Of a stretch of DNA of 56,945 nt, positions 1,809 through 49,679 are shown piece by piece. The DNA comes from Macrostomum lignano. Its lineage: Eukaryota. How positions within the stretch are numbered: the stretch's first letter is position 1; the number at the start of each line of letters is the position of its first letter. The DNA is taken from the NCBI GenBank assembly GCA_002269645.1, contig NIVC01003314.1:1-56945 (forward strand), written 5' to 3'. A program made the translations under genes and the position numbers. The notes under the pieces were generated by a model that was not told the DNA's origin, ran no database searches, and saw only the letters and a program-made list of their open reading frames with translations.

Positions 1809-2021
1809 GCATGCAATGGCGGGTACAGCACGCCTGTGTAGCATGAGACAGATTAGGCCTACGGGCTAAGGTCTGCGATCCTACACACCTGCACCCCCTC
1901 TATTCTGGTGCAGGAATGGCAGGAGAACTCTCTCCAAGCTGACTCGCAAGCCGACCCAGGGGTTCACGCCCCGCATGTGTTCAAGGCAGCTCTAGGGCTG
2001 CTGGACTGACTGGGCTCCGGC
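1809..2021 (+). ncRNA. HDV-like self-cleaving ribozyme at LINE 5' end (predicted)
   Basis: P1 GCATGC 1809-1814/GCATGT 1973-1978; P2 CCCAG 1955-1959/CTGGG 2010-2014; P3 GGG/CCC around L3 TTCACGC; J1/4 GT; P4 1981-2005; J4/2 CTGA. Confidence 0.75.
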
Positions 2022-2410
2022 GGCGGCAACCCATCCGTGGCCTTTTGGCCAAGTTGGGTACGGGCTCCGCCCGGAAGTGCACCTGTGCGTATCAGGTACC
2101 TCTGGCCACGGCTCTGAGGAACAGGTACCACCCTCTGACCTTAACAGGGTATGCGGCCAGCCCGCAGGCTCCGGAGGCAGTCCTCCTGCTTCCCTCAAGG
2201 GCCCAGTGTAGTACCGTGCTGTTGGTCCTTTGGTTCGGCCTCTGGTTTTTCCAAGCCGGGCTCTTAGCCGGGGAGTTTCTCGGTTGCTAGCGGTCGGGCC
2301 GGTACGGGCTTAAGCCACCCCCGGTCGCTACCTCTTGGCCTGGTTGTTGGGTTTGGGGTTACGGCCCAGCGGCTTCTCACCTTTAGTCCCCACTCGCCTT
2401 TCAGCGACTC

Positions 2411-8687: not shown

Positions 8688-9649
8688 ATTAATCTGATTT
8701 GTATAGAAAGTACACTTTGTAAACCTGCTTTATACATTAAACTGCTATGTATCGAAAGTAGACTTTTTAAACCTGCTTTATACATTAATCTGATATGTTC
8801 TTTACGCTTTATACACACATGTATTGAAAGTAAGTCTGCATTATACTTGTATCTACCTGTGTTTTATTAGCGCCTACTACACTAATATTGGTTTTGTCAG
8901 CCTAACTGAGAATAAAGCCATCCAAAGTGAGAATCCTGCCTACGCTGAATACGAAGGGCCTAGCTGCGTTCAGCCTAGTCTATGAGCCATAGACTATAAA
9001 GGACAAGCAAAGTTTTAAAAGACCAATGGATTCTCACATTGGATGGCTTTTTATCACTTTGCTTGTCCTTTATTGTCTATGGCCCATAGACTAAGGCTGC
9101 ACGCAGCCAGGCCCTTCGCAGTCAGCGTAGACAGGATTCTCACTTTGGATGGCTTTATTCTCAGTTAGGCTGACAAAACCAATACGTACCCGCTTTGTAT
9201 TTTGTCTGCTTTACCGTCTGTCAATATATCGATAATATGCACCTACATTGTGTGTTTTTTTGCTGCTCATATACCTATTATGCACCATTATTCACACCTA
9301 CCAATATGTTTTATCTACTTTTTTATGTAAATATACTCAATTTCGCCTACTATAAGTAGTTTTCACTAGCCTAATATCATTGACTACATATCGGTGTACA
9401 CATACATATCGGGAGAGTGTACTGGGGAGAGTGTACTGGGTAGAGTGTACTGGGGAGAGTGTACACTCGGGGTGCCTGCGGCATACATATCGGGGTACAT
9501 ATCGGGAGGGTCGCCTGCGGCATGGGCGCCTGCGGCATACATATCGGGGTACATATCGGGAGAGTGCGCATACATATCGGGAGGGTACCCCTGCGGCATG
9601 GGCGCCTGCGGCATACATGTCGGGAGGGTCGCCTGCGGCTGGACGGCGC
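8688..9649. repeat. Copy of the Polinton-like subterminal repeat (left-arm mirror)
   Basis: Direct match to 48112-48668: AT-rich block, 14-bp GGGGAGAGTGTACT x4, CCTGCGGCATACATATCGGG units. Carries an extra MITE and extra repeat units. Confidence 0.9.
8888..9182. mobile_element. 295-bp fold-back MITE with TA TSD
   Basis: TA|TTGGTTTTGTCAGCCTAACTGAG...CTCAGTTAGGCTGACAAAACCAA|TA; arms of about 130 bp are near-complementary; absent from the homologous 48310 site. Confidence 0.85.
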
Positions 9650-9682
9650 AGTTAGAGCCTTTCTATGGCTCTAACAGTCATA

Positions 9683-29569: not shown

Positions 29570-29602
29570 TATGACTGTTAGAGCCATAGAAAGGCTCTAA
29601 CT

Positions 29603-30564
29603 GCGCCGTCCAGCCGCAGGCGACCCTCCCGACATGTATGCCGCAGGCGCCCATGCCGCAGGGGTACCCTCCCGATATGTATGCGCACTCTCCCGATATG
29701 TACCCCGATATGTATGCCGCAGGCGCCCATGCCGCAGGCGACCCTCCCGATATGTACCCCGATATGTATGCCGCAGGCACCCCGAGTGTACACTCTCCCC
29801 AGTACACTCTACCCAGTACACTCTCCCCAGTACACTCTCCCGATATGTATGTGTACACCGATATGTAGTCAATGATATTAGGCTAGTGAAAACTACTTAT
29901 AGTAGGCGAAATTGAGTATATTTACATAAAAAAGTAGATAAAACATATTGGTAGGTGTGAATAATGGTGCAAAATAGGTATATGAGCAGCAAAAAAACAC
30001 ACAATGTAGGTGCATATTATCGATATATTGACAGACGGTAAAGCAGACAAAATACAAAGCGGGTACGTATTGGTTTTGTCAGCCTAACTGAGAATAAAGC
30101 CATCCAAAGTGAGAATCCTGTCTACGCTGACTGCGAAGGGCCTGGCTGCGTGCAGCCTTAGTCTATGGGCCATAGACAATAAAGGACAAGCAAAGTGATA
30201 AAAAGCCATCCAATGTGAGAATCCATTGGTCTTTTAAAACTTTGCTTGTCCTTTATAGTCTATGGCTCATAGACTAGGCTGAACGCAGCTAGGCCCTTCG
30301 TATTCAGCGTAGGCAGGATTCTCACTTTGGATGGCTTTATTCTCAGTTAGGCTGACAAAACCAATATTAGTGTAGTAGGCGCTAATAAAACACAGGTAGA
30401 TACAAGTATAATGCAGACTTACTTTCAATACATGTGTGTATAAAGCGTAAAGAACATATCAGATTAATGTATAAAGCAGGTTTAAAAAGTCTACTTTCGA
30501 TACATAGCAGTTTAATGTATAAAGCAGGTTTACAAAGTGTACTTTCTATACAAATCAGATTAAT
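29603..30564. repeat. Left inverted subterminal repeat of the Polinton-like element
   Basis: Reverse complement of 48112-48668, plus a MITE and extra tandem units. Confidence 0.88.
30070..30364. mobile_element. Mirror copy of the 295-bp MITE
   Basis: Reverse complement of 8888-9182. Confidence 0.85.
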
Positions 30565-31630
30565 GTATAAAGCAGGCAAACACACAGGTGCAATTTCAAC
30601 AGACGCATAATTAATGTCTCACCAACTAAAGAGTAAATATTGGTGCGATTGTGTAACCAGCAGGCGCACAGCGGTTTAGGGAAACCCCAAAAGGGAGGTT
30701 CACGGCCTAATGACCCGATATACTTTCAACACGATTAAATTGAATGGCGACGCGGGGGGCGGAAAAGTCTATAGCCCGCAGGAATCGATCCTGGGTCACC
30801 CTGTTTTAAATCACCAGGGTTACACCTTATTATTGTCAAAAATAGATGGGCAAAAGGGAGGTTTTTACCGCCCGAGCCCTCTCACATGTTCAATCGGGTT
30901 GAAAGTATTTCAAGTCATTAGGTTGTAAGGTCCATTTGTTTAGGACCGGCCCACCTATATTTCGGGTGGGCAGACTCGAGCCCGGGGCCAGCCCATTACA
31001 GTTTTCGGACCGGCCCCCTCTGGCAATTTCCTCCCTAGGGGCGAGCTATCAGAATTGGTGTTTTAACCCTGTGCATGCGCACATAGAGAACCCAGTTAGC
31101 GCCCATTCTAACCTACCCAGTGTACAGTGTCAGGTTCCCCAAACCGCGTACAAAGAGAAATAGCTTATCAGTCAATCTCCATACGCTCCCTCAGGGCTAT
31201 CTCGTACGCGGCCTCTTCCTCCACGCTCTCGAAGCAGTAGTCGGATGACTGCCAATGTGAAAATTATAACATTCTATATAGAAAAATATATGAAGTACAG
31301 ATTATACGAAATGTATATATACTGTAATATCTTACCAAATCTAAATCGTCCTCCAGCCGCCACAGACGTAGAGACGCTGTATAGCGCACCAGCGAAAGGT
31401 GCTCCTCCCAGTTAAAGGGCCAGATAGCTGCAGCAGGCTCATCCCAAGCAGTCGGGCGCGCTCCCGGGCCAGCCAGGTACGCCTCCGAGTCGGGGGCATG
31501 CGAATTGCGCCCCATTAGCCAATCCTGGTGTACTTGACTTACTTGACTTAGCTGCAGGGGGCTCCGTGCGTCCGGAAACAGCGAGGAGGCGTTGCCGCCC
31601 ATTTCGCTAACCCCTGGCGACCACGGGCAG

Positions 31631-34600
31631 CTAGTGCTGCGGTGTCGCGCAGGGAGTTCCGGTGGCGCCGGCGTCCGCAGCGCGGTCCCCCTCCGGAGAG
31701 TCCAGGAGGTGGATTGTCGCTCGCCCGGTACCCCTAGGTAGCGGACGAGCTGGCAGAGATTCTCGGGCCTGAAAACGTCGGAGAGGTCCGGGTTTGGGCC
31801 GAGGTAGGTGAGCCTGTCCTGAGTAAAGGCGGGGCATTCACAGATGAAGTGCTCCGCATTCTCGACACCGGAGAGGCAAAAAGGGCATTCCTCACTGCGG
31901 ATTTTCTCCTGGAGGTAACGATGCCTGGCAAAGCAGCCATGACCCGAGAGGGCCATGGTAACCGCCCTGATGTCCCTGCGGTTGAGTCCAAGCAGGGCCC
32001 TGCGTAGGGCGGAGGAGGGACAGGGGACAGCCGCGCGGGATTTCCGGCAGTCGGGGGCGTTAGCCCACCTCTCCCTGTGCTTAGAAGCCACCCACTGGTT
32101 GATCCGAGTGGTGACAACGGCGATGGGGGTGGGGGCCACGGGCAGGGGACCAGTAAAAGAACCGGTCGAGCCAGCCTTGGCCAGGCGATCGGCCAGCTCG
32201 TTGCCGGGGTGGCCCGAATGCCCGGGGATCCACCTTAGGGACACCTTGTTGGAGGCGCCTAAGCGGTTGAGCTGCCCGATGCAGTCGAGGACTGTACGCG
32301 AGCAGGTGGTGGTGCGCTCAAGGGCGTGAATCGCCGCTTGACTGTCCGAGTGGAGGGTAATTTCCTTCCCCCAGACGTGCTGATTGTACAGCTCCATGGC
32401 GCAGGAGCTGATGGCGAGAACTTCGTTCTGGAAGACGGTGGAGCAGGTGCCGGTGTGTTGGGAGAAGGTCGCCACAGTTCTCCCTCCAGACACGATGCAG
32501 TAGCCGTATCCAGAGGCGGAGTTGATTTGGGACCCGTCAGTAAAGCAGTGGATTTCATGGGGTTTCCAGTTGTCTCTCGCTTCATGACGTGGTGGAATGC
32601 TGGTTTTGAATTTGAGCGGAGGGCAGAGCGTGGACGGGATTCCGTCCGAGAGGGTCAGCAGGCCTCTCGCTGCTTCCAGGTCTCGCAGGCTGAGGTCGCC
32701 ATGCGGCCGGAGGTTCCGCTTTCTGAAGGCAAACTGCTTCTGGATTTGGACACCCGCGTCAAGCAGACGACGGGTGGTTTTCATAGCCTCCCCTCTAACA
32801 AAGAGGTCGAGGGGGGAATGTCCAAGAAGGAGTTCATGCCAGCGAAGGGCGTTGAGGGAGCCGCGCTCATGATAGCTCGACAAGCGCGGCCTTGCACCCT
32901 ATTTAAAACCTCAAGAACCCCTTTCACCTCTAGGGCACTGTTCCAAATGAGACCGGCAAAGGAGATGGTCGGTCTAACAATGGCAGTGTAAATCCACCAG
33001 AGGCGGCGGGGGGTGAGGCCCCAGGTAGCACCGAAAGCTCTGCGGATCTGCGCGAGAGTCGCGAGAGCTTTGCGGGCTTTAGTTTGGACGTGCGGGGTCC
33101 AGCTCAACCTGTGGTCGAGGGTGACGCCCAGACATCTAGTTTGTTTCTCCATGGCAACAGGTTTGCCATAGAGGGAGAGCGGTTCGATCCTCCAGTTTCG
33201 GCGGCTGGTGAACATGATAGCCACGGTTTTAGACTCAGAGAACCTGAGACCGCAGCTATGTGCCCAGCGCTCGGCACGGTGGATGAAGGCTTGAAGGAGG
33301 TCCCTGAGGACCGCGGGCGATGGTCCAGCCACAGTGGCGGTAACATCGTCCGCATAGCCGACCTTCTGAACAGGGTCCGGATGCGGGCTGCAAAGTAGCT
33401 CGTCCATGACTAAATTCCAGAGTATCGGGCTGAGGACTCCACCTTGCGGTCCGCCTTTCTGGACTTCCACGGAGCGTGAGTGTCCCAGGAGGTGCGAGGT
33501 GGCAGTACGATGGGAGACCATGTACATGATCGAGCGGGTGAGGTGCTCGTGCGTGCCCCGGGATTCCAGGGCTCGCTTAAAGGCTTCAAAGAGCACATTG
33601 TTAAAAGCACCATCAATGTCGAGAAAAAGCGACAGCGCGTATCCACTGCCAAGCACGGCGCGCTCCAGCTTGTCGACAATGGCGTGCAACGCACTTTCGA
33701 TGGAACGTCCAGGACGAAAGGCGTGCTGATTAGGGGAGAGCGGGGAGTTCCTCAGCTCAACAAGGAGAAGGCGCCAGAGCACCAGCCGTTCCATCAGTTT
33801 GAGGAAGAAGGACGTCAGACTGATAGGGCGGTAAGCTTTGGCGGAGTGATAGTCTCCCTTTCCTGGCTTGGGTATGAAGACTACCGTAGCCTCTTGCCAG
33901 GCTTTTGGCACATACCCGAGGGTAATGCTGGCCTTGAAGAGGTTGCAGAGGAGGCCGAGAAACCTGTCATTTTTAACTGCCTCATGAAGGAAGGCAGGAT
34001 AAATGTTGTCAGGACCCGGAGACTTGAAAGGAGAGAAGGATTTTGCGGCGCGAGCCGTCCTCTCTCTAGTAATGATGGTCGAAGCCAGGATCTGTCCGCC
34101 TGGAGAGTGGTCCGGTGGGCCTAGCTGCGGTGCGGCACGTGGGAAAGAGCTGGTGAGCATAATGTCCAGCGATTCCCCAGGGTTCTCAGCGAGCCGGCCG
34201 TCCGGTCTTTTAATGACTGAGAGCTTTGACATTTTGTCGAGGGTGAGAGCCTTAACTACGCGCGAAGTAGGACGGGTGCCTTCTAACTCCGCGCAGTATT
34301 GGCGCCATTTGTCGGACTTGGCTTTCCTGGTTTCACGCTTAAAGTCACGGATCGCTTCTTGATAGGCGGCCAGGTCAGCTGGGTCCTTGCTCTTGCGAGC
34401 TTTCCGTTGGAGGCACTTTGCCTTGCGCCGGAGGGATCCGAGCGCCGGGTGCCACCAGGGGGCGGATTTCTTGCCTTTGTAGGCTTTGAGAGGACAGGAA
34501 GCCTCATGGGCTGTCAGGACGGTCTTGCTGAGCAGGTCTGCAAGGTCATCCACTTCCTGACAGGTGGTTGGAGCGACGGTGGCCAGCTGATCTGTCTGGC

Positions 34601-35378
34601 ATTTCAGGGTTTCCGTGAAAGCCGTCCAATCAGTGTTCCGGACGTTCCTTTTCCACAGAATTTGAGGCTTGGGGCAAGAGGATTGCAAACGAAAACGAAC
34701 GAAGCGATGGTCAGACAGAGACTCCTCTTCGTCCCACACCTCCCAGTCCTTGACTAAAGGAGCCAAGCCATGGGAGACGAGGGTAACGTCGAGGGCCTCC
34801 GTCCATCGCCCGTTGTCAAAGGTGGGGGTTCCACCAATGTTGCAAAACTCAGTGTTGGTGGAGCAGATGTAAGCAAGGAGTTCCTCGCCTCTGCTATTGG
34901 AAGTATTACTGCCCCAGTGGGTGTGGTGAGCGTTGATGTCGCCCGCCACCAGCAGCTCGAACCTACGGTTAGAGCAGTAGTCCACGAGGGAGGTGAGGTT
35001 AGGTGGAACCGCGGGGCCATCGCCAGGGATATAGATCGAGGCGATGATAACCGTGCGGTTGGTGATAATGTGGTTGGACTGAATGACACAGAGGTCTCTG
35101 TCAGAGAGGTCCGGTCTGTGCCAAGCTTTGAGGTGGGTAGATACGAAAATGGCTGCTCTGGGGTTTTGGGGGTCTTGAAAACAGTCAAAACCAGCAGGAA
35201 TATTCGGAATCTTACCTTTCTTTGTCCAGGGCTCCTGGAGTAGGATGATGCCCGGTTTCGCAAAGTTTGCCACCCGCATCAGGTTGGTCGAGGCCGCGAT
35301 GCAGTGGTGCAGGTTTAGCTGCAGGATGTCCACTCCGGGAATTCCACGAGTGGTCCGCGCAGCTTCCTGCCGGCTCAA
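31631..35378 (-). CDS. LINE ORF2 polyprotein (APE-RT-RNase H-CCHC) with two -1 homopolymer frameshifts
   Basis: 865-aa frame 32781-35378 shifts at a C6 run (about 32811-32816) into the RNase H frame, then at a G4 run (about 31731-31734) into the frame ending at the stop 31631-31633. The [18 protein letters not shown] motif plus RNase H point to the LOA clade. Confidence 0.88.
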
Positions 35379-36847
35379 GGCGAGTTGTGCAGGAGAGCTG
35401 CCTCTTCTGCCTCGCCGATAGCTCCAGGCTCCAGCTCCATGGGCTCCTCCCGGATGGATTCCATGGTCGAGGGCGGGGTCGCTACCTGGGCGGCATTCTC
35501 GCTCTCGGCCCGGTTTTCCGGGGGGGGGGCCGCAGTGGTGACACTGGGCTGGGGGTGGCTGCGGTTGGGGGCCTTGGCGGTGTCCAGCAGCTGTTTCGCG
35601 CGCTGAGTCAGACCAGAGCGGATAGTGTTCCGGGCGGGTTTCCGGCCCTTCCCACGTCCGCCTGTTGCTGCAGCTTTCGCGGCTTTCCCTCTGACAGGGT
35701 CCACGTCCTCGGAGGGGTCGTGACGGCCGGGAGCTTCTTTTCCTGGGCGTTTCCGCCCGGCAGAGCCCCCGACTGTCCGCTTACGCTTCTCCGGGGGCGG
35801 TGGGCGGGTGGCGTCAGACTCAAAGCTAAAGAGCTGAATCTGCAACAGCCCGACAGAGATGATGGACATGTCCGGGTAGCGGAGCATCCAGCTATCCGAC
35901 AGTCCAAGAATAGCCGTGAAACCGTCTCCGCCTGGCTTGGAGATGGTCTCGTGAACTACGACACCGTTGGCCGGTAGCTCCGGGTTGGAAGCCACTAGCA
36001 GGTGACGCAGCTCGTCGGCCTTGGTGATGCAGCTGCGAGCCGGGATCCAGGCACGGTGCCGGTGTGTCCGGGGTCGCTCGTCCTCCCTGTAGATGAACAG
36101 GTTCTCCAGCTCCGTACCCCAGTCGAAGGTTTTCAGCAGCTCGAGGAGCTGCTGTCCTGACTGGCTGTCGGTGGGCTGGATATAGAGGGCTTGGTCCTCG
36201 ACTTTCGTATTTTGGACTCGAATGGTAGTGCCGCTCAAGGCCATCTTGACCAGGTGGGAGTCCAACCTGCGCCAGATAAGATCGAGCTGTTCGGCCGTAA
36301 GAGGCGTCTCCTGGCCTTGGATAACCAGGGCCGGCTGCCTTTTGGCCATAGCCGCGTAGGTTCGCTTCGGCTTTGTGGTTTGGCCAGCGCCCCCCGCTTT
36401 GGATCCCTCCACGGCAGTGGAAGCTTCCACACGGGCAGAGGTCCGGTCACGGGAGGGGCCAGCCGCACCAGGAGCTTCGGCGGCACCTGACGCATCAGAC
36501 CGGCGCGCGGGGTCCACCCCCTTGTCGGATGTCGGCTCCTCCGCGGGGTTCGCAGAGTTACCGGCACCCTCCTCAGAGGTGGCCGGAGGGGCGGCTTTCG
36601 CATTCCTCCGTTCCTCCGCTTTGCGCTGGAGAAAGGCTTTGTAGCGAGCAATGCTACGGGCCTTCTTTTTTGAAATCTGAGGTCCGCTGTCTTGTCCAGC
36701 CACTCCGGTATTATCCTGAGCGGCGGCAGCGGCAGATTGAGAGGCACCGGGGGTTCCGGTGTTGCGAATGTCCGGCTGGGCCGCGGTGCCAACCTCGGTA
36801 GGTGCTCCAGCAGCCTCGGACGTGTCGGAGGTAAGTGAATACTCCAT
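35375..36847 (-). CDS. LINE ORF1 (490 aa; central DUF4780-like domain, no CCHC knuckle seen)
   Basis: ATG-initiated and intact. RAWIP...LRHLLVASNPEL...TAILGL...ISVGL resembles the ORF1 domain of LOA-clade elements (judged by eye). Confidence 0.8.
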   Translation of the reverse strand: MEYSLTSDTSEAAGAPTEVGTAAQPDIRNTGTPGASQSAAAAAQDNTGVAGQDSGPQISKKKARSIARYKAFLQRKAEERRNAKAAPPATSEEGAGNSANPAEEPTSDKGVDPARRSDASGAAEAPGAAGPSRDRTSARVEASTAVEGSKAGGAGQTTKPKRTYAAMAKRQPALVIQGQETPLTAEQLDLIWRRLDSHLVKMALSGTTIRVQNTKVEDQALYIQPTDSQSGQQLLELLKTFDWGTELENLFIYREDERPRTHRHRAWIPARSCITKADELRHLLVASNPELPANGVVVHETISKPGGDGFTAILGLSDSWMLRYPDMSIISVGLLQIQLFSFESDATRPPPPEKRKRTVGGSAGRKRPGKEAPGRHDPSEDVDPVRGKAAKAAATGGRGKGRKPARNTIRSGLTQRAKQLLDTAKAPNRSHPQPSVTTAAPPPENRAESENAAQVATPPSTMESIREEPMELEPGAIGEAEEAALLHNSP

Positions 36848-37237
36848 GAGTCGCTGAAAGGCGAGTGGGGACTAAAGGTGAGAAGCCGCTGGGCCGTAAC
36901 CCCAAACCCAACAACCAGGCCAAGAGGTAGCGACCGGGGGGTGGCTTAAGCCCGTACCGGCCCGACCGCTAGCAACCGAGAAACTCCCCGGCTAAGAGCC
37001 CGGCTTGGAAAAACCAGAGGCCGAACCAAAGGACCAACAGCACGGTACTACACTGGGCCCTTGAGGGAAGCAGGAGGACTGCCTCCGGAGCCTGCGGGCT
37101 GGCCGCATACCCTGTTAAGGTCAGAGGGTGGTACCTGTTCCTCAGAGCCGTGGCCAGAGGTACCTGATACGCACAGGTGCACTTCCGGGCGGAGCCCGTA
37201 CCCAACTTGGCCAAAAGGCCACGGATGGGTTGCCGCC

Positions 37238-37450
37238 GCCGGAGCCCAGTCAGTCCAGCAGCCCTAGAGCTGCCTTGAACACATGCGGGGCGTGAACCCC
37301 TGGGTCGGCTTGCGAGTCAGCTTGGAGAGAGTTCTCCTGCCATTCCTGCACCAGAATAGAGGGGGTGCAGGTGTGTAGGATCGCAGACCTTAGCCCGTAG
37401 GCCTAATCTGTCTCATGCTACACAGGCGTGCTGTACCCGCCATTGCATGC
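37238..37450 (-). ncRNA. HDV-like ribozyme, mirror copy
   Basis: Same sequence as 1809-2021; G1 = 37450. Confidence 0.75.
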
Positions 37451-40400
37451 AATCCTGGTGTAACGTCTCCGCCTCCAACACCTCCCGTAGGCAGGCCCCC
37501 CTCGAAACCAAAGTATCGAGAACCTGATTAAATGCTCTGACAAAGGTGTCTTGGGAGGGCAGGCCGCCAGGGTGGCGAGACCTCAGCCAGTCGATATCCC
37601 CGCGGAAAAACGAGGCAACGATGCGTGGAAAGTGTGGTGGGCGTGTCCTCGCGGCTAAGCTACTGGTTTTCTATTTGCTACTAAGGATTTTACTAGTGGA
37701 TTATTATCTGCTGTACTGATTTGAGATTTGGTAGAATCGCGGCCACCAGGCTTCCTGTTCCCTAGTCCTATTATTGTAGAGACAAAGGATTGACTCAGGA
37801 AAACCGAATTGTTTAACAAAAGTTTTATACTTCAAAAGAAAACAAAATGAAAAATAGTGTAATGGCTGTGCCTATTGCTCTCCGCTGCCACCAATGTAAT
37901 GCTGGTGCCGGATCCCACCAATGTAGCCAATGTAATGGCCTTGTGGATCCCCGTCTCTTTGGTGATTACTGCTGTTGCCTACTACTTCCTCTGTCTGTCC
38001 TCGCTATCTAGCACGGCCGGTAGCTGGCCTGAGTGGTCTAGCACTATGGTCCGAATTAACCCCTCTTAGTCTCCACTGAGTACAGTTAGATAATAACCGA
38101 GTATTGGTAGTTGGGTTGCTGCCACCTTGTAGGTCCACAGGTGATATCCTCGACAGGTTACCCCTAGGTAGGCCTACTGATAAGTAGAAAATAAATAAGA
38201 CAAACAAGTCAGTTAAACGTTTATTAATGTGAGTAACGGTCACAGGCCGATCCTAAAATATCGTTTAATAGCTCAACTGGTGTCGCAGTAACAAGTCCTA
38301 ACCCTATTAGGTGTCACTGATGTTGCCCAACCGCGTAGGTTGTAGGCCACGAGACCAGGTCCAGACGGTGTTGAAGGTCTGGCGAGCTGATGACACAAAG
38401 ACCTGCGGCAGTCTTAATGAGCAAATGGCAGCTGCAACAAGGATTTGTTAGCAGGTTATCCCTATGAAAAGCGTCTAGCGATCTGCCTAAGCTAGTTCGT
38501 CTAGGAAAAGCATCTAGGAATACTAGCCTTTGCTCGAAGCCAAGCAGGCGGTCTCCGAAAGGATGGTCTCTTTGGGCCTTCACCTACTCTGTATTTATAC
38601 TAAAATTCGGGGGTCTCAGGGCCAATGGGAAGCTCAGAGGCAGTTCCGTGGCAGATCCCATGGCAGTTCCGTGGACTACCCGGAGCCAGGAGCGATCTTG
38701 GAGATGTCCATAAGACATCTGCCTCATCATGCAGCCTCCGCATGGCCTGCTGGTACACTGCTTGCATGTTGCCGCATGCAAGGAGTGCAACCAAGACCCC
38801 ACGAGATCCTACCCCGGGCGGAGAGCTATGCTCTCACTCCCGCTGACTAAATAAGCCTGTACTAAGGGAGAAATATCCCACTGACTAATGTTTCTATTTT
38901 TAGCCCATTGCAGACTGCGCCAGGGGGAGAGGGGGAGAGAGTTTCTCTCCCTGTCCCGCGACAGCTGCACACCTGAGCCTGCACAAGGGAAGGGGAGGAA
39001 GGGACAGCCCTATGCCCAGCTCCCACTGCTGCAGCCCAAGCACTAACTGACTAAGAGGGGATCCCAGGAGCAGCCTATGCTAGCTACGCTGGATCACCAC
39101 AATAGCATGCCTCCAGCCGCCTGGTGCAAAATGTCAGGCATCGACTACCTGTAGGTGTACTGCTTCGGCATCAACTACCTCGACAGTTTTACTTAAATTT
39201 TTCCCAATATTCCCTGTCTCTTACCTTCCTAATTTCTGAGATCTGCCGCCAGCCAGCGAAAATAAAACTAACTAACAAGTCTGCTTTCCCAAGCCTTAAC
39301 TTAACTTAACTTGATAAGTGATTCCGGCGCCTCAGCCTAAGTAAAAAGGCTCTTACGCCACTAGAGATAATTTAGATTCCAGATTGGGAGTGTACTCATG
39401 TACACTAAAAGCCAAATTAGACTATAGAGGACTGTACAGGGCAGTATCAGAAAAACCAAACCTCCCCGGGGGACAGTGACAGCGGTTCGACGAACCAGTC
39501 AGGAAGCCCGTGCCCAAAAAACCAGGTTAGAAGGCCCCCAAAGCCTATTAGAGATGGCCCGAAGGCCTAGAGCCGTGGCAACCATGCTGGGGCCGACCGC
39601 CCACCACCCCGGGTACAAATCAAAAACCTCCCCGGGGCCAGAGGGGTTGAGTGAACCATTCAGGGAAGCCCGTGCCTACTCCTGGGTTAGTTAAGCCAAT
39701 GCCGGTCATTTGACCGCCCCCACACCGTGGCAACCCGAAGGAGCCTCCCCCCCAACTAGACCCCGGGTACTCTTGCCAACAGACAGTCTCTTATCTTTGA
39801 AGCGGCAGGAGGGCTAATCGCCGGGACTGTTTCACCCTTTGCTTCGCCAACCCGCCATTTCTATTGTGACCGTGCCAACGGTCTCGTCCTGCTCAGACTC
39901 AGTCCTGGTTCTGGCACACTCCAGCTTTAATAGGGTCGCTGGCTGTACGCTCAGAGGGCGCCTGAGGGATACCGTCAGAGCACCTTGGTACAGGTATAGG
40001 CCTGCCTTCCTATACAGCTACCCACAGCCCCTCCCGATCCACTATTACCCTCCAACCCAGCCTACTCACTCATTACAAGCTTTCAGCCAGGCAGAGACAA
40101 GTTTCACAGAAGTGACTGCGGTTAGGCGTCTCTATGCGAGACAAAACCAACCAAAAACCAAGCCCCAAACTGTTCTATACTTCTAGAGAATCCCGAAAAC
40201 TAGCGATTTTCCTTCTAGAGATAAGATAAAAAGATAAAAGTCTAATTACTTTCCCAAACCTAAACTACTGACAGTAGGCAAAAAGCATATCTGCTTCGCT
40301 ACTAACTCCCGTTCCTAAAATAATGCCCTACTACACCTCCCCCCTACTTTTAAAAGTTTGCAATCCCCATTGCATACTTTCCTTCTTATTAGTTCGTGTA

Positions 40401-40919
40401 TATTTGATAAATGTTATTATAATGGCGCGTGCAAGATGGCGTATTGAGCTGGATATAATTGATAAAATTGTACTAATAATAGGTACCATTACAGTTGTGA
40501 ACAAAAGAAAATATGTATGGCTATATAAGGAATAATGTCACGTTAGCGCTGGAGAGATTTAGGCACAGATCATAGCTAATAACAGAATTGATAAAAAAAT
40601 TGGTGATGACACACAGGTAATGCACGTATGAATTGGCAACAGTATAGAAAATAATTTTTATCAGGCACAATTAATAGGCATAATTGCACTTTCTAAACGA
40701 TAAGTGTAGCTAGTTAACATCATAAATGTAAAATGTAGATATTTATTAACGCAGAATAATAATAGGCCTAATTGGACTGTCCTGTAGAATAACTAGATAA
40801 ACTATTAATGTAAGCGTATTTATTTGTTTAGCATGCATAAAGAAAAGCATACCGGCTCAAATCCAAAATGTAATTGTTTATGCTAATCTCAGCGTAACTA
40901 CTTGGTTCAGTCATTACGT

Positions 40920-41680
40920 TCATCCTCTAGCCTCCTGCTTCTGGGGGTACCAATAGGGCCAGGGCCCTCCGGCGCGCCGCTCGGCCTCTTGCAGTACGTA
41001 GGTGGTGGCCACCTCGTAACTAGCCGTTGCTTCTTCTTCGGATGCCATCCCTAAGAACTCCTGGCAGGCCGTCGGTAGTTGATGGTTCCACTGCCCAGTC
41101 CTGCCGCTGGATAGAATGACCTTCTTTAAGGCTTTCGTGCTGGCCTTGAAAAGCTGCTTAAAGGCCTCCTCGTTCCGCTTCGGGGGCTCGGATTCTCGTG
41201 GCGCCGCAATCGGCCATTTTACTTGACCAAAGGGGTTCGGCAGCAGCTGGAATTTTGGCATCGGCGGTTCTGTTGCAGCTGCCACTGGCGCGCCTGAGCC
41301 AGCCGACCCTTCTTCGTGTTCTTCCTCCTGCGGCTTCGTCTCCTTTTCTTCATTAGACTGCTGTTCCGTCTCATCTTCTTCATCTTCTACCTTTCGTTCT
41401 ACATGTTGGACCAAGTCCTCCATAAACTGCTCCATCTCCCTTCTCAGCTCCTCTTCTCGCGTCGCCGTTCCTAATGCCTCGAAATCGATGTCGATTTGTA
41501 ACTCTCTGTGGACTTCTCCCTTCTCCTCCTGCTGCCGGTCCAATTTCTGCCTTTCATACGTTTCTCCACATTCTGCCAACTGCACTGCCCTAATTCGCGG
41601 GGCTCGTTCTCTTCTCGACTAGTTCTGCGCTGGCCGTAGATTCTCTTCCTAGGGTACACGCGCAATGGTGCGTCGGCCAT
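40920..41680 (-). CDS. Orphan acidic, coiled-coil-like protein (~253 aa) with one apparent -1 frameshift near 41590
   Basis: ATG at 41680. Adding one G to the GGG run (TTA GGG GCA GTG CAG) joins ORF 41471-41680 to 40920-41585. Confidence 0.6.
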
Positions 41681-41682
41681 AG

Positions 41683-42192
41683 TTATTCAGATTTGAGCTG
41701 CAAGAGGTTGAATGGGTTAAACAACGCCGCTATCCTCTGTACATAACTCTTCTGGTTCGGCCTGACAGTTAATCTATCCGGAGCATGACGCTCTCTGGCC
41801 TCAGGTGCCGGCTTGAAGAGCTTGTCCAAACGGGAGGCAAACATCCGGCGCCACAGTTCAGGCGTGAATTCGATCGTGTAGCGCCAATTAAACTTTGGGT
41901 CCACGTTGAGCCAATCGCGCAGCAAACGAATCCTTCCTTGCGAAGCCTCGACAGCCTTGAAATTGCCCAACACGACCCGCTTGTACACGTGAAGGCGGGC
42001 AGCAGCCTCCAGGTCAGGGCGTGCAGACTCGAGCTTCTTCCACTCTGGTTCGGTCAAGTAGATTGCAGGGAAGCCGTCCTTCCACACTCCAGCCTCGTTG
42101 GTGCAGAGACGCCGAATTTCAATCAAGTTGTGCTCAGTTTTAAATGTGGGCTTCCGCGCCACAAAGTTTTCGTATAGAGAGTTAGAAGACAT
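41683..42192 (-). CDS. Tandem PC4-like (ssDNA-binding fold) protein, 169 aa
   Basis: LIEIRR...G...GFPAIYLTEPEWKKL...L..A and a second unit VVLGNFK...IRLLRDW...IEFTPELWRRM resemble the PC4 pattern IDIR...GI.L...W..L. TATA box about 47 bp upstream. Confidence 0.6.
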   Translation of the reverse strand: MSSNSLYENFVARKPTFKTEHNLIEIRRLCTNEAGVWKDGFPAIYLTEPEWKKLESARPDLEAAARLHVYKRVVLGNFKAVEASQGRIRLLRDWLNVDPKFNWRYTIEFTPELWRRMFASRLDKLFKPAPEARERHAPDRLTVRPNQKSYVQRIAALFNPFNLLQLKSE

Positions 42193-42431
42193 GATTTAGC
42201 AGCAGCAGCAGAGAGCTCTCTGGCAGCCGTGCAGCGCCTTATATACCCCCGGATGGAGGGTGGGGTGGGTGGTGATTTTGGGGGTGATTTTTGATGATTT
42301 TGGTTGGTTTTTGGCGATTTGACCAATAACCAGCAAGCTGGGCAGATTTTTTAGTATATATACAGACCCCCAGAACAGGGATAGAGAGATAATGCTTCTC
42401 TCTCCGCTCTCTCACACTCTCTGTTTGCAAA
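42193..42431. promoter_or_regulatory. Divergent promoter between the PC4-like gene and pPolB
   Basis: TATATAA on the - strand (42239-42245); CCAAT (42323-42327) and TATATATA (42355-42362) on the + strand; ATGs at 42192 (-) and 42432 (+). Confidence 0.6.
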
Positions 42432-45400
42432 ATGTCAAAGCGCAGCGCAGCACCAACTGCTTTCCTGGCTGATAAGAGGCAGCGTCTTTATGGTAAGTTT
42501 TTAATTAATTTCTGGCCAGTTGTTTATCAGTCTAGACTAGAGTTGCTAGGGTGGGGTGCTGCGGCAGGAGGTGAGCTGCTGCGACAGCTGCAGGGGTTTA
42601 GCGCTGTCTAGACAAGTTTCAGCACGGTGAGCTGCGCGTGTAAACAAAGACTGGGGCTGCAGATAGGGTGCGTGTACGTAGCTGCCCAGACAAGCTGCAG
42701 CTGAGGTGCTGATAAGAAATTGCTGCAAAAACAGATAATCGTTGGGTGCGGTGACAGAGAGTTTCTGGGGAGGACTAGACATGATTTAGCAGCAACAGCT
42801 GCAGGATCCATGGGAATTGGAGGGGTGCAGCAGAGTAAACAACAAAGACTGGCGCTGCTGCGCTGGCTACACGGGTCTAGACTAGAGTCACTAGGCAGGG
42901 GGGTACGTTGCTGATAAGAAATTGGCAGAGGCTGTAACAGATAATCGTTGGGGTAAAATTGCAGACAAGTTTCAGCAGCGCGGTGGCAGAGAGTTGCTGG
43001 GTCTGATAATCGGTGTGCGGGGACAGCGTGATCTCTGATAAGAAATTGGTGCAGATAGGGCGCTGCCCAGACAGGCTGCAGCTGGGGTACAGATAAGAAA
43101 TTGGCAGGGGCTGTAACAGAGAGTTGCTGGGGCGGGCTAGACACGTTTCAGCAGCAACAGCTGCAGGGTCTGTGGGCAGCAGAGTAAACAAAGACTCTTG
43201 CAGAATAGAGTTGGTGAATTGCTGCTTGCTGCGACATAGGGCTGATAGGAACTTGCTAGGGCGGGGGAACACGCTGGGGCCGGGAAAATGACAGATTCTT
43301 CTGGTTTGTTATCTCCTTGTGTTTTTTCAGACGCGTTTGTCCCGCCTGTACAGCCAGAATCTGTTACCGGACCGGGTGAGTTATCTAGCCCCCATTCCCC
43401 AGACAGACCCGGGCTGACTCACACTCCCCTTCATTCCCTGCAGGTTTTACGGCCCGGCTAGATAATCAGCGCGAGCTGCCCAAGTTTAGGGCAAAGGGTG
43501 TTGAGTATGTGGTGCGTATTAGTAACACCGAAGATTTACGCTAGACATTCGCTAGTATGCTCGAAGTTTTCAAGCAGGATTTGGCGGGGGAAGACTTTAT
43601 GGCCGCGAAATTCGAGAGCGACAACATGCTCAAAGCCGCCCATACTCCCCCCAGTGCGTGCAGCCCGCATGACAGCCGAATTATTATTCAAGCACATTGA
43701 CAAGATTGTGCAGTCGGAGGCAACTGTCTTGACGGGCAACTTTTCTATCCGACTGCTAAAGGCCTGGGTGCCTCGAGGTGGCTGCTCCCTCGAGAACAAG
43801 CATCTGGAGGACCGCCTGCGAGCGCTTGTTGTCGCCTGCGCCTACCTGCAATTTGTGGCCAAGACAATCACCGAGCAACTGTGGCGCACGATCAAGGCTA
43901 ATTCACCCAAGCAGACTAAGCTGGTGGCTCAGCTGCAAATCAAAGCCGGTCTCTACACGGTAAGTTGGGCACTGATTTTCCTGATAAGAATTACTAAAAG
44001 AACCATTTTTCTGCTATTTTCATGGATTACTAAAATAATTTTTACATAGTATCATGGAATACTAAAAGAAACCATTTTCTGATAGGAATTTTTACATAGT
44101 ATCAGGGAATACTAAAATAAATATTTTACCCCCCACACAGACCGTCTCGCAGGCCGGTCCTTTCGGGGTGGATGTACTACCCGAGGCGATCCGTGCCCTG
44201 AACCGGCTGCATCCTGGCCACAACTTTGGTGTACGAGTGTACCGGGCAGAGGAGGCCAACAGGTGCATCTTCAACCTGCCTGGCACCGAGATTCTGCACC
44301 TCCACCTGATTGAGCAGCACTTCAATGTGGTTACCAAGCTGCCAGCGTTTTTCGGCAGCCACCACTACTGCTCCAAGTGCGAGATAGCCTATGACTGCAC
44401 CAACGCTGAGCACAAGTGTGCTGACGCCTGGAGTACATGCAAGACGCCGGGCTCCAACTGCAAGGTCAACCGCGCATATGTGAGATGCCATGATTGCGGG
44501 CTAAATTGTTATAATGCTCAGTGTCTAGAGAATCACAAGCGCAAGAATAAGGCGGGTAGATCTCGCTGTGATTCAGTCCACGTTTGCGGCACGTGTGGCT
44601 ATCTAGAAGAACTGAAAGTAGGCCAGGCCCCCGAGCATCAGTGCGGTCACTCCAAGTATCCAGTCTGCAAGCAGTACGACGAAACAGCCACCTACGAGTG
44701 CTTTGTCACCCCGCCCAAAGCCAAAGAGTCTAGCGCCCCGTACGTTTACTACGATTTCGAGACGTACGTTGACTCTGGCAAGCAGCACCGGGTACACTTG
44801 GTTACGGCAGCTACCTCCTGCGAGGCGTGTCCCAAACTCTTCCCCAGGCCCCGCTGCAGCGCGTGCGGGGGTTGCACCGCTCAGCCAATTGCATTGCGGG
44901 ACGCGATTTGGCGCGCGATTTTACGAGCTGTGTCTCCCACAGTGACTGTGCTTGCGGGATGCGAGAGTTTTTATCAGTCGGGCCTCACTCTATCGATGCA
45001 TTTTACTGCTGGCTGACTAGCGTGTTCAAGCAGGGGGCAATTGCTATTGCGCACAATGGCTCTGCGTATGACGCATTCCTCCTGCTCGGAGCCCTACTCA
45101 ATGGACTGGCCAAGAAAAAGCCCCAGGTAATCTTCTAGAACAGTCGCCTGATGTACATGAAGAGTGACAAGGTCACGTTCAAGGACAGCCTCAACTTTAT
45201 CCCTATTGGTCTGGCGCAATTCCCAAAGGCACTTGGTTTGGGCACCCAACTGACCAAAGGAGATTTCCCGCACGTGTTTAATCAGCCGCAAAACTGGGGC
45301 TACGTAGGACCCTACTGCTCGATTGATATGTACGGAGGGAAAAAGAATAAGCAACACGACTCCATCGCTGACTGGCTGGCCCAGCAGGAAGGCCGAGTGT

Positions 45401-47509
45401 TTAATTTCAACAAGGAGTACCTGGACTATTGCCTGCAGGACACGCTAATATTGCGGGAAGGCTGTCTAAAGTACGGCCGCCTGATTAAGGACATTTGCGG
45501 ACTGGACGCATTTGTCCAATCCGACACCATTGCGGGCTTGGCCATGGCAGTATTCACCATTAAGTTTATGGTGCCCAACACTCTTGGGGTGATTTCTCGC
45601 CGGTCAGATGTGCAGTCGCACAAGGCGCGGTGCTGGCTTGCACATTTGAATGCAACCGAGTTTGGCGGCCGGTTGCGGACAGCCGACTCTGGCGGCGAGG
45701 CTTTCGCCATAGGCCGAAAGGTGTATGGCTTCGACCCAGAGACTAGGACGGTGCTCCAGTTTCATGGCTGCTTCCACCATGGCTGTCCCAAGTGCTTCCC
45801 CAACGGCGACGTGCTGCACCCGCTCAAGAACCAGCCAATGCGGGCAATTTATGAGGAGACTGAGCGCTTCACCCGGCTGCTCTCTACAGCCTACAATGTA
45901 CGTGTTCTGTGGGAGCACGACTATCAGGGCGGGGGAGCGCCAGTCCAGCAGCCTATTCGTCTGGAGGAAGCCCTGTTTGGCGGCCGCACCGAGGCCTTTG
46001 TTCCGCACGCCGAGGCCACTGACACTGTGGAGCTGCGCTATAGGGATGTGGTAAGTTTTTTCAAAATTTCTCACACACACGCACACACACAGTTGACTTG
46101 CGTTTGAGTTTAGCCTACTCGACTAAGGTGTCGCTCTACCCGACTGTCAACAAGTTTGACAAGTACCCTGTCGGGCACCCGGTTCACCACCCCGAGCCTC
46201 ATCTACTGGATGAGCAGCAGCTGGCTCGGTATTTTGGCATCGCCGAGGTGTCGATTCTGCCGCCAACCAATCTTCACATCCCGCTACTGCCCGCCAAGAT
46301 TAGTAAGAAGCTTGTTTTTGGCCTCTGCCGCGTCTGCATGGAGACACAGTGCAGCAGCGAGTGTACACACACTGACGCTGAGAGAATGCTACGCGGCACG
46401 TGGTCGACCCCAGAGCTCCACAAAGCCCTGCAGTTGGGTTACAAGCTGCAGTTAGTTCATGCCCTGGCGTATTGGACCGAGACTCGGTCCGGGCTGTTTG
46501 CAGATTATGTAAACACCTTTTTGAAGCTCAACGCCGAGTCTAGCGGTTCGCCGGGGATGACTGAGGGCGCCAAGGCTGCCTACATGGCCAGCTTTTTCGA
46601 GCGCGAAGGTGTCCGGCTTGACAAGGTGGAAGAGAACCCTGGTCTGCGCTTTGTGGCCAAGATTTTTTTAAACTCGTAAGTTGGGGAGACCGTGTTTTTC
46701 TACTTACAGTAGCCAGATATACTAACTGCTAAAATTTATTTTTCCCTGCAGGCTCTGGGGCAAATTCTGCCAGCGCGACGACTTGACCTCCACAGAGATT
46801 GTGGACAGCTACGAGGCGTGGCTCCAGCGTCTGACAGACCCCTCCATCAAGTTCAAGTCGTGCGAGCCTGTTGGGGAGAGCTTCATGATGCTCGAGTATA
46901 AGCCCCGATTTGGCGGTGCCAGCGAGCGAGCATTTAAGTACGCCAATGTACCAATTGGCGTTTTCACCACCTCCCATGCCCCGCTGCGACTCTACGAGGC
47001 TCTGGAGGGGCTAGGACCAGAGTCATTTACGCCGATACCGATTCGTAAGTAATTTTTTCACTGTCTCTGTCTCTCTTTCTCCCCCAACACTTTTTTATCC
47101 TCCTCCTCCTCCCAGGGTCGTATACCGGTGCTCTCCGGGCGAGTACGAGCCTCCGGGCGGTTCGAGTTTGGGGCAGTGGACTGACGAGGTACCTGCCGGC
47201 TGCCGTATGGTACAGTTCACCACTGGGGGCCCCAAGCTCTACCGCTATGTGGTGGAGAAGCCCGACGGGTCGGTGTACTCGGTACTCAAGTGCAAGGGCA
47301 TCCGAGTCACACCCGAGATTTCCGAGCGCGAGGACGAGCTGCAGGAAATTCTGCGCCACGGCTGCTCTGTACGCCTGCCCCAGGTCCAGTTCAGGCGCGA
47401 TATGGCTAGCTGTACAATCAGGACCCTGGAGATGGACAAGACTTTCCAGCGAGTAATGACTAAGAGAGTGTATGGGGCCGCCAGCCGTCCGTATGGCTTT
47501 CGGGAGTGA
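42432..47509 (+). pseudogene. Protein-primed family B DNA polymerase (Polinton type), spliced, degenerate
   Basis: ExoI YYDFETY, ExoII AHNGSAYD, ExoIII YCLQD, GGRTE, motif A DV|VSLYP, motif B KIFLNS|LWGKF, motif C YADTDS|VVY. Introns 42493-43330, 43376-43443, 43960-44140, 46051-46127, 46676-46751, 47045-47115. Stops at 43542 and 45136; frameshifts near 43645, 44880 and 47015. Confidence 0.92.
42530..43260. repeat. Degenerate ~170-185-bp repeat with GATAAG motifs, inside predicted pPolB intron 1
   Basis: Recurring (C/T)AGAC(A)..TT.AGCA at about 42608, 42776, 42960 and 43138, and GATAAGAAATTG at about 42712, 42912, 43038 and 43093. Confidence 0.65.
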
Positions 47510-47604
47510 GTGATAACGATCTGTCTTAGGGGAGCGGTTTTCGTGAGTGATAAGGATCGGTCTTTGTACGTCTCCCAGCCTGGGATTCCCCTATGTGCAC
47601 ACTT

Positions 47605-47700
47605 GGGATCCCTTCAAGTGTTAAAACTCCCATTTGACACCTCCAACCCCCTGTACATTGAGCGGGATTCCTTCAAGTGTTAAAACTCCCATTTGACACC
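47605..47700. repeat. 37-bp direct repeat x2 downstream of pPolB
   Basis: GGGAT(C/T)CCTTCAAGTGTTAAAACTCCCATTTGACACC at 47605 and 47664. Confidence 0.85.
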
Positions 47701-48111
47701 TATTCCCCCGGGGCGGTTTGTAGCCCGTTGGTCCACCTCTTGGAGTAGAACTCCTGCAAAACGGACATAAACTGCTGCGCCGATTAGCGTCCCGATAGCG
47801 CAATCGAAATACGTTTCCGCTCCCGAGCCCTCTCACGGGTTCAATCGGGCTGAAAGATTTTGACGCGTTCAAAAGCGTCGTGATAATAATATATTGTGGG
47901 TTAGGGCGGCTAAAACCTCCCTTTTGTTTTTTGTTTAATGCACCTGTGGGCTAGACAATTGCAGCAATATTTACACCTGCAGCACCTACGTTTGTATAGC
48001 TTTATTAATCTGATATGTTTCAAAAGTGAATATTCTTTATACATATGAGTCTGTATTATACAACTATATATTTACGCCTGCTGATATTTGCACTCGCGCA
48101 TGCATACCATT

Positions 48112-48668
48112 ATTAATCCGATATGTATCGAAAGTACACTTTGTAAACCTGCTTTATACATTAAACTGCTATGTATCGAAAGTAGACTTTGTAAACCTGC
48201 TTTATACATTAATCTGATATGTTCTTTACGCTTTATACACACATGTATTGAAAGTAAGTCTGCATTATACTTGTATCTACCTGTGTTTTATTAGCGCCTA
48301 CTACACTAATATTGATTTTGTCTGCTTTACCGTCTGTCAATATATCGATAATATGCACCTACATTGTGTGTTTTTTTGCTGCTCATATACCTATTATGCG
48401 CCATTATTCACGCCTACCAATATGTTTTATCTACTTTTTTATGTAAATATACTCAATTTCGCCTACTATAAGTAGTTTTCACTAGCCTAATATCATTGAC
48501 TACATATCGGTGTACACATACATATCGGGAGAGTGTACTGGGGAGAGTGTACTGGGAAGAGTGTACTGGGGAGAGTGTACACTCGGGGTGCCTGCGGCAT
48601 ACATATCGGGGTACATATCGGGAGAGTGCGCATACATGTCGGGAGGGTCGCCTGCGGCTGGACGGCGC
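48112..48668. repeat. Right inverted subterminal repeat of the Polinton-like element
   Basis: Reverse complement of 29603-30564 without the MITE; weaker similarity extends inward to about 47900. Confidence 0.88.
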
Positions 48669-49459
48669 TTGGCGCCACGCGCCTGCGGCGCGCGCGCGCC
48701 GAGCGCCGATATCGATACGCGTATCGATCACCTAGTGATCGGGGCGCCAGCCAATGAGAGGCGAGGAGGGTTGACACCCACCTCACCTCCAAAATCAACG
48801 GAAACGGGGTTGTATAGTAGTGAGGTAGACCCAAAGTAGTGAGAGACCATATTTAAAATATTTCACTATGTACCCAAGGCCGGGCAATTTGAGGCCGCGG
48901 AGGCAATAGAGCTTGTGCATGTGGGAGAAATAATTTCTCTACACGGAGCCAGCGTGCCTGAGGCCGCCTGCTGGGGGAGAGATTTTCTCTCTCGAAGTCA
49001 GCGTGCTCGGGGGTCGCGTGCATGGGAGAGAGAAGTAGCTATTATTATTATTCCATAATTATGAAATCAGTGAGGTTTGAATACCAGATTTCATGTTTTC
49101 TAGTAGAAGTTAATCTCAGTTTTTCAGGGCATTTTTTTCTCGAATACTGTGTTGGGATAGCTATTTCAGCCATAAGAGCTTTGTACGTCAATCGATTTTA
49201 GTATATGTTGATCTAAGGGGGATTTGGTTGTCCCAGAAGCCCCATCATGACAACTACTATCCCGTTTAGATCAGTAGTTAAAATTATGACGATGAGGTAG
49301 TTGGTTTTTGGTATTAGGGCATGATGTTTAAATAGATTTTAGTACTCGTAGATAATGATTTTTTGTTGCACCAGAAAAGGGGTAGTGGTTTTTTTCCCGA
49401 AACTTTGCGGAGGGAATTTGCACCAGAACTCCCCTCATGACAACTTAGTGTCATAGTGG

Positions 49460-49645: not shown

Positions 49646-49679
<34 letters not shown>

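Follow-up and report, generated by a model that had tools for sequence, protein, structure and literature searches.

The contig NIVC01003314.1 of Macrostomum lignano (assembly GCA_002269645.1), analysed here as a window of 56,945 nucleotides, contains between two inverted repeats (29603 to 48668) a dead, rearranged copy of a virus-derived mobile element, whose gene for a protein-primed DNA polymerase B (pPolB) of the Polinton or Maverick type is interrupted by six introns. The copy has no integrase and belongs to a multi-copy family, members of which lie inside unrelated host genes. The solid novelty is the introns, which are old, non-repetitive and located in the catalytic motifs of the polymerase of a multi-copy animal Polinton. 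Polintons have been regarded as endogenous viruses that are free of introns and recognised by having a polymerase together with an integrase; since the window copy departs from both features, having no integrase and carrying seven introns (six in pPolB and one in a second gene, ORF-C) in its open reading frames (ORFs), it should be considered a Polinton-derived variant and not a canonical member. With slightly better than even confidence, we regard the family as a reduced branch of a Polinton lineage specific to Macrostomum, whose pPolB gained introns long ago and which kept only the replication module, i.e. pPolB, a tandem PC4-fold single-stranded DNA (ssDNA)-binding protein, ORF-C and the terminal repeats.

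Introns in the polymerase and their age

The polymerase is matched on two of its pieces by Pfam DNA_pol_B_2 (PF03175; E 3e-12 and 1e-12). Each of its six introns starts with GT(A/G)AGT and ends with AG, and all seven introns of the element show GT(A/G)AG donors and AG acceptors. Introns 4, 5 and 6 fall within stretches that we take to be the polymerase motifs A, B and C, respectively, and their removal gives a gapless alignment to all four distant pPolBs tested (15 residues on each side, with an X placed at the junction residue). Splicing of pPolB is well supported at the level of the DNA sequence. A reading with only five introns was rejected, since models of other copies contain the micro-exon. 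The sole solved relative found by sequence is 1xhx, a 575-residue DNA polymerase, presumably that of phi29 (E 3e-7). In the control Polintons, taken from genome bins, pPolB is a single long ORF. Motifs of pPolB are also listed in PMC10748475.

The window copy of pPolB is a dead pseudogene: stop codons lie in frame at 43542 and 45136, the frame is broken near 43650, 44870 and 47016, and at 43816 some 18 codons, putatively the vOTU cysteine motif, are absent. In P0005, a protein model of another copy, residues 103-1202 align with the pPolB of the control Polinton L001 (28%, E 8e-140), and the alignment spans the N-terminal region and a Cys/His pair, which we read as the terminal-protein (TP) and vOTU domains described in 10.1101/2024.03.18.585575. 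By PF03175 and the P0005 homology, the gene shows the TP-vOTU-exonuclease-palm architecture of a Polinton polymerase, the domain names coming from that preprint and from motifs, not from a fold. Intron 1 holds at 42777-42799 a 23-nt copy of the start region of the PC4-fold gene (42187-42209), plus other degenerate repeats. Many other-copy models skip pPolB positions 45588-45930, by a real deletion or a model artefact; this segment has no Pfam match, and from its motifs we take it to be a Vsr-like nuclease insert.

The search with pPolB gave 48 matches, 41 of which are named M. lignano gene models at 56-98% identity; one of the remainder is 94% and six are 25-30% identical. The other copies are known only as automatic protein models, not as DNA, and the sharing of introns is judged from the behaviour of these models at each junction: a jump indicates a splice site, whereas a model that joins cleanly need not have an intron in its copy. 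Of the 42 models, 21 make the exact join at motif A, 19 break off at that very point and continue downstream, and two do neither cleanly; at motifs B and C joins are made by 33 and 21 of the 42, respectively. These 42 clusters do not equal a copy number, as they comprise differing models and possible assembly duplicates. In a subfamily of 61% identity, both P0004 and P0006 make the jump at motif A, and P0006 makes another at intron 3; at motif C, P0006 stops at the donor and P0005 takes up again at the acceptor. Since the splice positions appear to be common to this subfamily, we infer that the introns would be older than the subfamily split and were carried along during the spread of the family. 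Within the element the pPolB introns are mutually unrelated, pairwise local scores ranging from 12 to 24 with short matches only, which was taken as a test for introners.

In a tree of 19 rows (three of 22 were dropped for covering less than 200 residues), the seven placed M. lignano models and the window piece form one clade (100/100), within which the two subfamilies are sister groups (100/100). The tree has no named reference taxa and its long branches meet at the root; all that can be read from it is that the proteins of M. lignano group as a single clade. Judged by the models, the family is multi-copy and not a single occurrence. P0016 carries ADAM domains and P0018 C2H2 fingers on both sides of pPolB, and most long model flanks are mutually unrelated, which argues for insertion of the family at several places. 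That other copies have the same gene order is seen from models of either strand that span ORF-C, the PC4-fold gene and pPolB.

Ends and gene content of the element

The inverted repeats pair in three segments, 29603-29641 with 48630-48668 (100% over 39 nt), 29716-30053 with 48315-48658 (95% over 344 nt) and 30351-30564 with 48112-48325 (97% over 214 nt), and their homology fades inward, first at about 30700/47914 (71%) and then at 30851-30879/47898-47926 (86%), a gradation expected for the ends of one element. The repeat measures 557 bp on the right and about 665 bp on the left without its miniature inverted-repeat transposable element (MITE), within the 100-1500 bp of Polintons. The MITE is 88% self-complementary, and none of 100 shuffles was as stable as its DNA fold (z -26.9). 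Positions 29603 and 48668 are not the true ends, since other-copy models that continue from pPolB through the right repeat extend further outwards (P0028 to 48754, P0048 to 48734) and this extension is absent on the left. Polintons have 5-8-bp target duplications and AG/AGT-repeat termini; at the visible repeat ends, 29603 and 48668, no target duplication was found, the left being truncated and the right reaching at least 48754. Without the long interspersed nuclear element (LINE) inserted in it the element measures 13,136 bp, of which about 8.7 kb are common to the family. A direct, not inverted, repeat of 40 nt (30871-30910/47822-47860, 90%) lies downstream of the 3' ends of ORF-C and pPolB.

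An earlier note on this DNA had proposed one element of about 13 kb (LINE removed) between one pair of inverted repeats enclosing its genes. This holds, the pairs being 95-100% alike, yet the repeats are not true termini. The possibility it named, that the two repeats stem from unrelated neighbouring insertions, failed, as the homology is graded and other-copy models join ORF-C, the PC4-fold gene, pPolB and the right repeat in the same order. The spliced pPolB (broken as it is), the PC4-like gene and a spliced orphan gene, which is ORF-C with its 87-nt intron and split by the LINE, were likewise borne out, and Pfam, tblastn and profile searches for the integrase, ATPase, protease and capsids that it could not read gave no match. 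Its acidic orphan is indeed open over 232 codons, but matches no other copy and is not countable as a family gene.

The PC4-fold gene, divergent from pPolB, was assigned from a structure model (predicted local distance difference test, pLDDT, 76) in which a single chain carries two sheet-helix repeats, as does Pur-alpha (Z 9.2, rmsd 3.9, 118 aligned). With Foldseek, the best PDB match is human PC4 (E 0.004, TM(target) 0.84) and the best BFVD match MOSUB of a lancelet adintovirus (E 3e-4), and the homologue P0052 matches Pfam PC4 (E 2e-4). The modelled PC4 fold is hence supported, and the protein would presumably bind ssDNA. As the fold is also found in adintoviruses, the gene is of a Polinton accessory type and not a novelty. 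Among 1.84 billion representatives it has seven matches, three of them distant (30-36%) and one an unrelated repeat protein. Below 41797 the tail of the gene is unlike that of the other copies. One ORF of the control L001 aligned with PC4 proved unrelated. The spacer between the divergent starts is a putative bidirectional promoter.

Concerning ORF-C, its 3' part matches the C-termini of P0050 and P0051, and the N-terminal ~165 residues of other copies are absent. In those copies the protein has about 310 residues, the first half being acidic and of low complexity. The LINE that splits it in the window is flanked by a 13-bp target duplication (31520-31532 and 37450-37462); other-copy models run across this site uninterrupted, the LINE being absent there. 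Homologues of ORF-C were found among M. lignano models only (five of 952 candidates of 192-613 residues), with no substantial Pfam domain, no PHROG, no NCBIfam and no usable Atlas match, a best E of 0.83 against PDB sequences, and an unusable structure model (pLDDT 34). Its last exon encodes Cys-x-Glu followed by an acidic run, without the leading Leu, which we take to be loosely like the retinoblastoma-binding motifs of small DNA viruses.

The absence of a retroviral-type (rve) integrase from the window copy is a well-controlled result: Pfam rve has no match in 140 frames, tblastn with five control integrases has none in the window (the controls detect each other at E<=3e-12), and a profile of the five control proteins has none among 1245 six-frame pieces at E<=1, six of which are matched by the control pPolB profile. 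For the A32/FtsK ATPase the window gave no Pfam, profile or Walker A match, a search that short exons could escape; Pfam finds the control ATPases (E 5e-6 and 6e-8), which BLAST does not mutually detect. Regarding the adenain protease and jelly-roll capsids, only a polymerase fragment among 49 control ORFs matched the window, in a comparison of low sensitivity where the control capsids were not positively identified. Integrase, ATPase and adenain domains were found in none of 49 proteins scanned, mostly other-copy models. Given the typical sizes of core genes, the 3.3 kb between 37633 and 40920 is too short and leaves no room for the full set. It is probable that integrase and capsid genes have been lost throughout the family. 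Control locus L001 (3576-23137) is an apparently complete Polinton with inverted repeats, pPolB, A32 ATPase, integrase and adenain. The contigs of this Polinton and of the one in L007 had been assigned to a spirochaete genome bin and are probably eukaryotic contamination there; contigs with pPolB plus integrase also occur in L003, L004 and L008.

The resemblance to other copies ends abruptly at positions 37632 and 41797. The 4,165 bp between them, the acidic ORF included, match none of the fetched sequences, and the different PC4 tail and the ORF-C N-terminus of the other copies are absent. Between 37633 and 40920 the longest open frame has 122 residues. The acidic ORF has no homologue among 1109 candidates (127-406 residues) at E<=0.001; it follows closely after the PC4 stop and may be part of a different variant of the element. 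A codon-phase model for this middle part was discarded, as held-out known exons scored -0.014 to 0.054 bits/nt with no discrimination. Two further candidates were rejected, namely 40300-40900 as a diverged terminal repeat and 38000-39200 as a solo long terminal repeat (LTR): their alignments to repeats and spacers did not clearly exceed shuffles, and target duplications were absent from all inverted pairs. A RING-finger-like piece at 38714-38851 (+), possibly a decayed exon, matches Pfam zf-C3HC4_3 below the cut-off (E 0.004), and a direct repeat pairs 39458-39514 with 39624-39676 (58 columns, 78%).

Table 1. Features of the element and its mirror copy, in window coordinates (a dot marks features without strand).
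Feature	Position	Strand	Remarks
Mirror copy of 29603-39264	1..9650	-	part of large palindrome, 99.87%
Left inverted repeat	29603..30564	.	95-100% to 48112-48668; 14-bp and 48-bp tandem repeats; outer end truncated
Hairpin MITE, 299 nt	30068..30366	.	in left repeat only; TA at both ends
Degenerate inner part of left repeat	30633..30879	.	71% to 47914-47974, 86% to 47898-47926
ORF-C, 3' part	31168..31532	-	exon 31336-31532, GT-AG intron 31249-31335 (87 nt), last exon 31168-31248
LINE (endonuclease, reverse transcriptase (RT), RNase H) inserted in ORF-C	31533..37449	-	Pfam RVT_1 (E 2e-30), Exo_endo_phos_2, RNase_H
ORF-C, middle part	37450..37631	-	84% to P0051/P0056/P0057
Unmatched 4.2-kb stretch	37633..41797	.	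matches no fetched other-copy model; no core-gene match
Acidic orphan ORF	40920..41618	-	232 open codons; within unmatched stretch
Tandem PC4/Pur/Whirly-fold protein, putative ssDNA-binding	41683..42192	-	structure model and Foldseek
Spacer between divergent pPolB and PC4 starts	42193..42431	.	239 nt; TATA-like box on each strand
pPolB pseudogene, seven exons	42432..47509	+	Pfam, exon alignment, homology
pPolB intron 1	42493..43330	+	838 nt; GTAAGT..TTCAG; P0028 makes the join; internal degenerate repeats
pPolB micro-exon	43331..43375	+	45 nt; other-copy models join it to next exon
pPolB intron 2	43376..43443	+	GTGAGT..TGCAG
pPolB intron 3	43960..44152	+	P0005 joins gaplessly at 44152 acceptor; alternative acceptor 44140
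pPolB intron 4	46051..46127	+	within motif A
pPolB intron 5	46676..46751	+	within motif B
pPolB intron 6	47045..47115	+	within motif C
Right inverted repeat	48112..48668	.	pairs with left repeat
Outer extension of right end	48669..48757	+	common to other copies; 18-bp palindrome 48711-48728

Propagation, alternatives and known relatives

As a reduced Polinton subfamily, the element works like a Polinton replication module. Host RNA polymerase II would transcribe the divergent genes from the spacer, and the host spliceosome would make the pPolB mRNA. The N-terminal terminal-protein domain would prime strand-displacement synthesis from the repeats and be released by the vOTU domain, the PC4-fold protein coating the displaced strand. 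The linear product would then re-enter chromosomes, and the likeliest means is an integrase that a fuller Polinton of the same genome provides in trans, which we favour over host repair. In this account the dead window copy was subsequently struck by the LINE and the MITE, was truncated on its left, received a new middle part and was drawn into an inverted duplication. Several points weigh against this account. The evidence on other copies consists of automatic gene models only, and the helper integrase is postulated, M. lignano not having been searched for one. Termini and target duplication lie outside what the window copy shows, and splicing is deduced from the letters of the DNA. The capsid and protease tests are weak, as neither the control ATPases nor the candidate capsid ORFs recognised their counterparts at other loci. 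Finally, other-copy models skip the stretch between the PC4-fold gene and the ORF-C start (P0051 versus P0056/P0057), where the window copy is rearranged, and core genes could be hidden in this gap in other copies.

The gap is central to the alternative that survives best, in which the family is a complete Polinton or adintovirus whose genes are all spliced and hence were missed. The window copy would then derive from it by deletion or replacement, and the core genes would sit in the gap or in the 61%-identical subfamily. It would account for the skipping of the gap and for the breakpoints at 37632 and 41797, which show that family sequence was lost here; furthermore, that subfamily has the most complete pPolB models (1158-1250 residues), the PC4 fold is of the adintovirus accessory type, and more than 80% of 72 Polintons retain the capsid gene (PMC4028283). 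We nevertheless hold it to be unlikely, as plus-strand P0017, P0023, P0030 and P0045 and minus-strand P0050 and P0051 cross the gap without a core-gene exon, and P0028 and P0048 join pPolB directly to right-repeat sequence. The earlier note had offered either a deletion derivative or a distinct family; the family is multi-copy, and the window copy did lose family sequence at both breakpoints.

Less probable still is an autonomous, integrase-free nuclear replicon resembling a linear plasmid, copying itself by pPolB and the PC4-fold protein and entering chromosomes by host break repair or recombination. The window copy is compatible with it, having no integrase found, no target duplication at its visible repeat ends and a ragged left end. 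Loss of the morphogenetic module gave rise to cytoplasmic linear plasmids once before (10.1101/2024.03.18.585575), and integrase-less relatives, though without an OTU domain, occur in Hydra and a spider (PMC8502044). However, the end may have become ragged through damage at a later time, an integrase would account more simply for the several independent insertions, and for free linear DNA there is no evidence. Introns of the spliceosomal kind suggest that the element is integrated and transcribed in the nucleus, and of the earlier interpretation the Polinton-type spliced pPolB, the PC4-type fold and the single element stand, whereas 'linear-plasmid-like' has no direct evidence. Plasmids of the pGKL type replicate in the cytoplasm, have their own transcription enzymes (RNA polymerase and capping enzyme) and carry no spliceosomal introns. 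Domains of these two enzymes have no Pfam match in 140 frames of the window, and introns are present; the M. lignano element is chromosomal and needs nuclear splicing. Shared with these fungal plasmids are TP-vOTU-pPolB, terminal inverted repeats and the lack of a capsid (10.1101/2024.03.18.585575). An animal nuclear replicon of Polinton-virus descent, which shed its capsid and integrase genes, depends on the host spliceosome for its polymerase and spread by self-synthesis, is a tentative idea to which we give about the same low credence as to the complete Polinton; if true, it would be a nuclear counterpart of the fungal linear plasmids, invisible to surveys needing intronless ORFs or a linked integrase.

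Very improbable, and largely refuted, is that the 'introns' are introner-like or random insertions into a dead element, or that repeats and genes come from unrelated insertions or an assembly chimera: the pseudogene does lie inside a palindrome, whose arm differences are typical of sequencing error, and introners invade dinoflagellate maverick-like elements after integration (PMC11957031), but the seven introns have uniform donors and acceptors and are mutually unrelated, the splice points recur in the 61%-identical subfamily and the gene order recurs in other copies.

Among known systems, Polintons or Mavericks (Alpha adintoviruses, with a PF03175-type pPolB and an N-terminal OTU domain) share with the element the full-length pPolB homology, long terminal inverted repeats, a PC4-fold gene and multi-copy insertion in an animal genome; they differ from it by its six spliceosomal pPolB introns, its lack of an integrase and the ATPase, protease and capsid not being found. 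The family-shared part of about 8.7 kb contrasts with the 13-25 kb of Polintons (PMC10748475), and in vertebrates intact Mavericks have no introns and show 6-bp duplications (PMC8097293). Nine of 72 Polintons lack the major capsid protein, protease and ATPase (PMC4028283) and so resemble the window copy in the joint absence of morphogenesis genes, although the passages of that paper dealing with them do not describe integrase loss or introns. PMC8502044 describes OTU-bearing Alpha PolBs as well as integrase-less MELD viruses from Hydra oligactis and Anelosimus, which are likewise pPolB elements without integrase in animal datasets; the latter are without OTU and are described as apparently complete viruses, whereas the M. 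lignano family keeps the vOTU motifs and is integrated. Dinoflagellate maverick-polinton-like elements (PMC11957031) also hold spliceosomal introns, but there the introns are repetitive transposon copies, mostly acquired post-integration, in elements that keep integrase and capsid, whereas here they are mutually unrelated and apparently common to diverged subfamilies. PMC12220804 and 10.64898/2026.10.13.758929 mention, in the passages concerned, only self-splicing introns.

A spliced Polinton family of M. lignano is unreported among the matches listed in the literature, with subscription papers, Repbase and bioRxiv supplements outside this scope. Literature joining Macrostomum with Polinton or Maverick yielded only unrelated papers, none was found joining pPolB, PC4 and polinton, or adintovirus and MoSub, and five supplements of PMC12801592 contain neither Polinton nor Maverick. 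A Polinton-related insertion in a rhabditophoran flatworm is described in 10.1101/2025.04.19.649669, whose supplements may show a flatworm insertion (Fig. 5e). As large surveys require a linked integrase (PMC10748475) or, in the part of that preprint concerned, do not consider introns, a spliced integrase-less family would be systematically missed. If each of the three catalytic motifs holds an old intron, the lineage would have stayed functional while tied to nuclear splicing, which would represent a virus-to-transposon transition caught in an animal. M. lignano is kept as a model in the laboratory (PMC8717057), so that its splicing, the element's termini and any free DNA are directly checkable.

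Surroundings of the element

The window is rich in repeats. Positions 23369-39264 are an inverted copy of 1-15882 (99.87%), forming a palindrome with arms of at least 15.9 kb, the left one continuing past the left edge of the window, around a unique spacer of about 7.5 kb; the left half of the element, being mirrored, hence occurs twice. The arms differ by 18 gap bases and three mismatches, most of the gaps being single bases missing from homopolymer runs in the left arm, so that the palindrome looks like a very recent duplication with long-read error, or a mis-assembly. Some of the pPolB frame breaks may be sequencing errors. Rfam has no match in 23369-56945. The palindrome breakpoint interrupts an orphan ORF (15376-16062, 228 residues), and its spacer holds CACTA/EnSpm-like remains at 18800-23011 (-), with weak Pfam matches to Transposase_21, DUF1258 and DUF4218.

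Further along lie an ORF at 24669-25217 (+; 182 residues), carrying an 18-bp array of about ten copies, and Pfam-matched gag and reverse transcriptase fragments of an LTR retrotransposon at 26832-28110 (-). Adjoining the left end of the element is what we take, from its catalytic motifs, to be a decayed mariner-like element (28596-29571), with 31-bp terminal repeats and no Pfam match. On the other side, satellites occupy 49456-56903, namely (TGTC)n, a 23-bp array and a 55-bp array, and the 23-bp array is interrupted by a truncated LINE that is 69% like the one inside the element.

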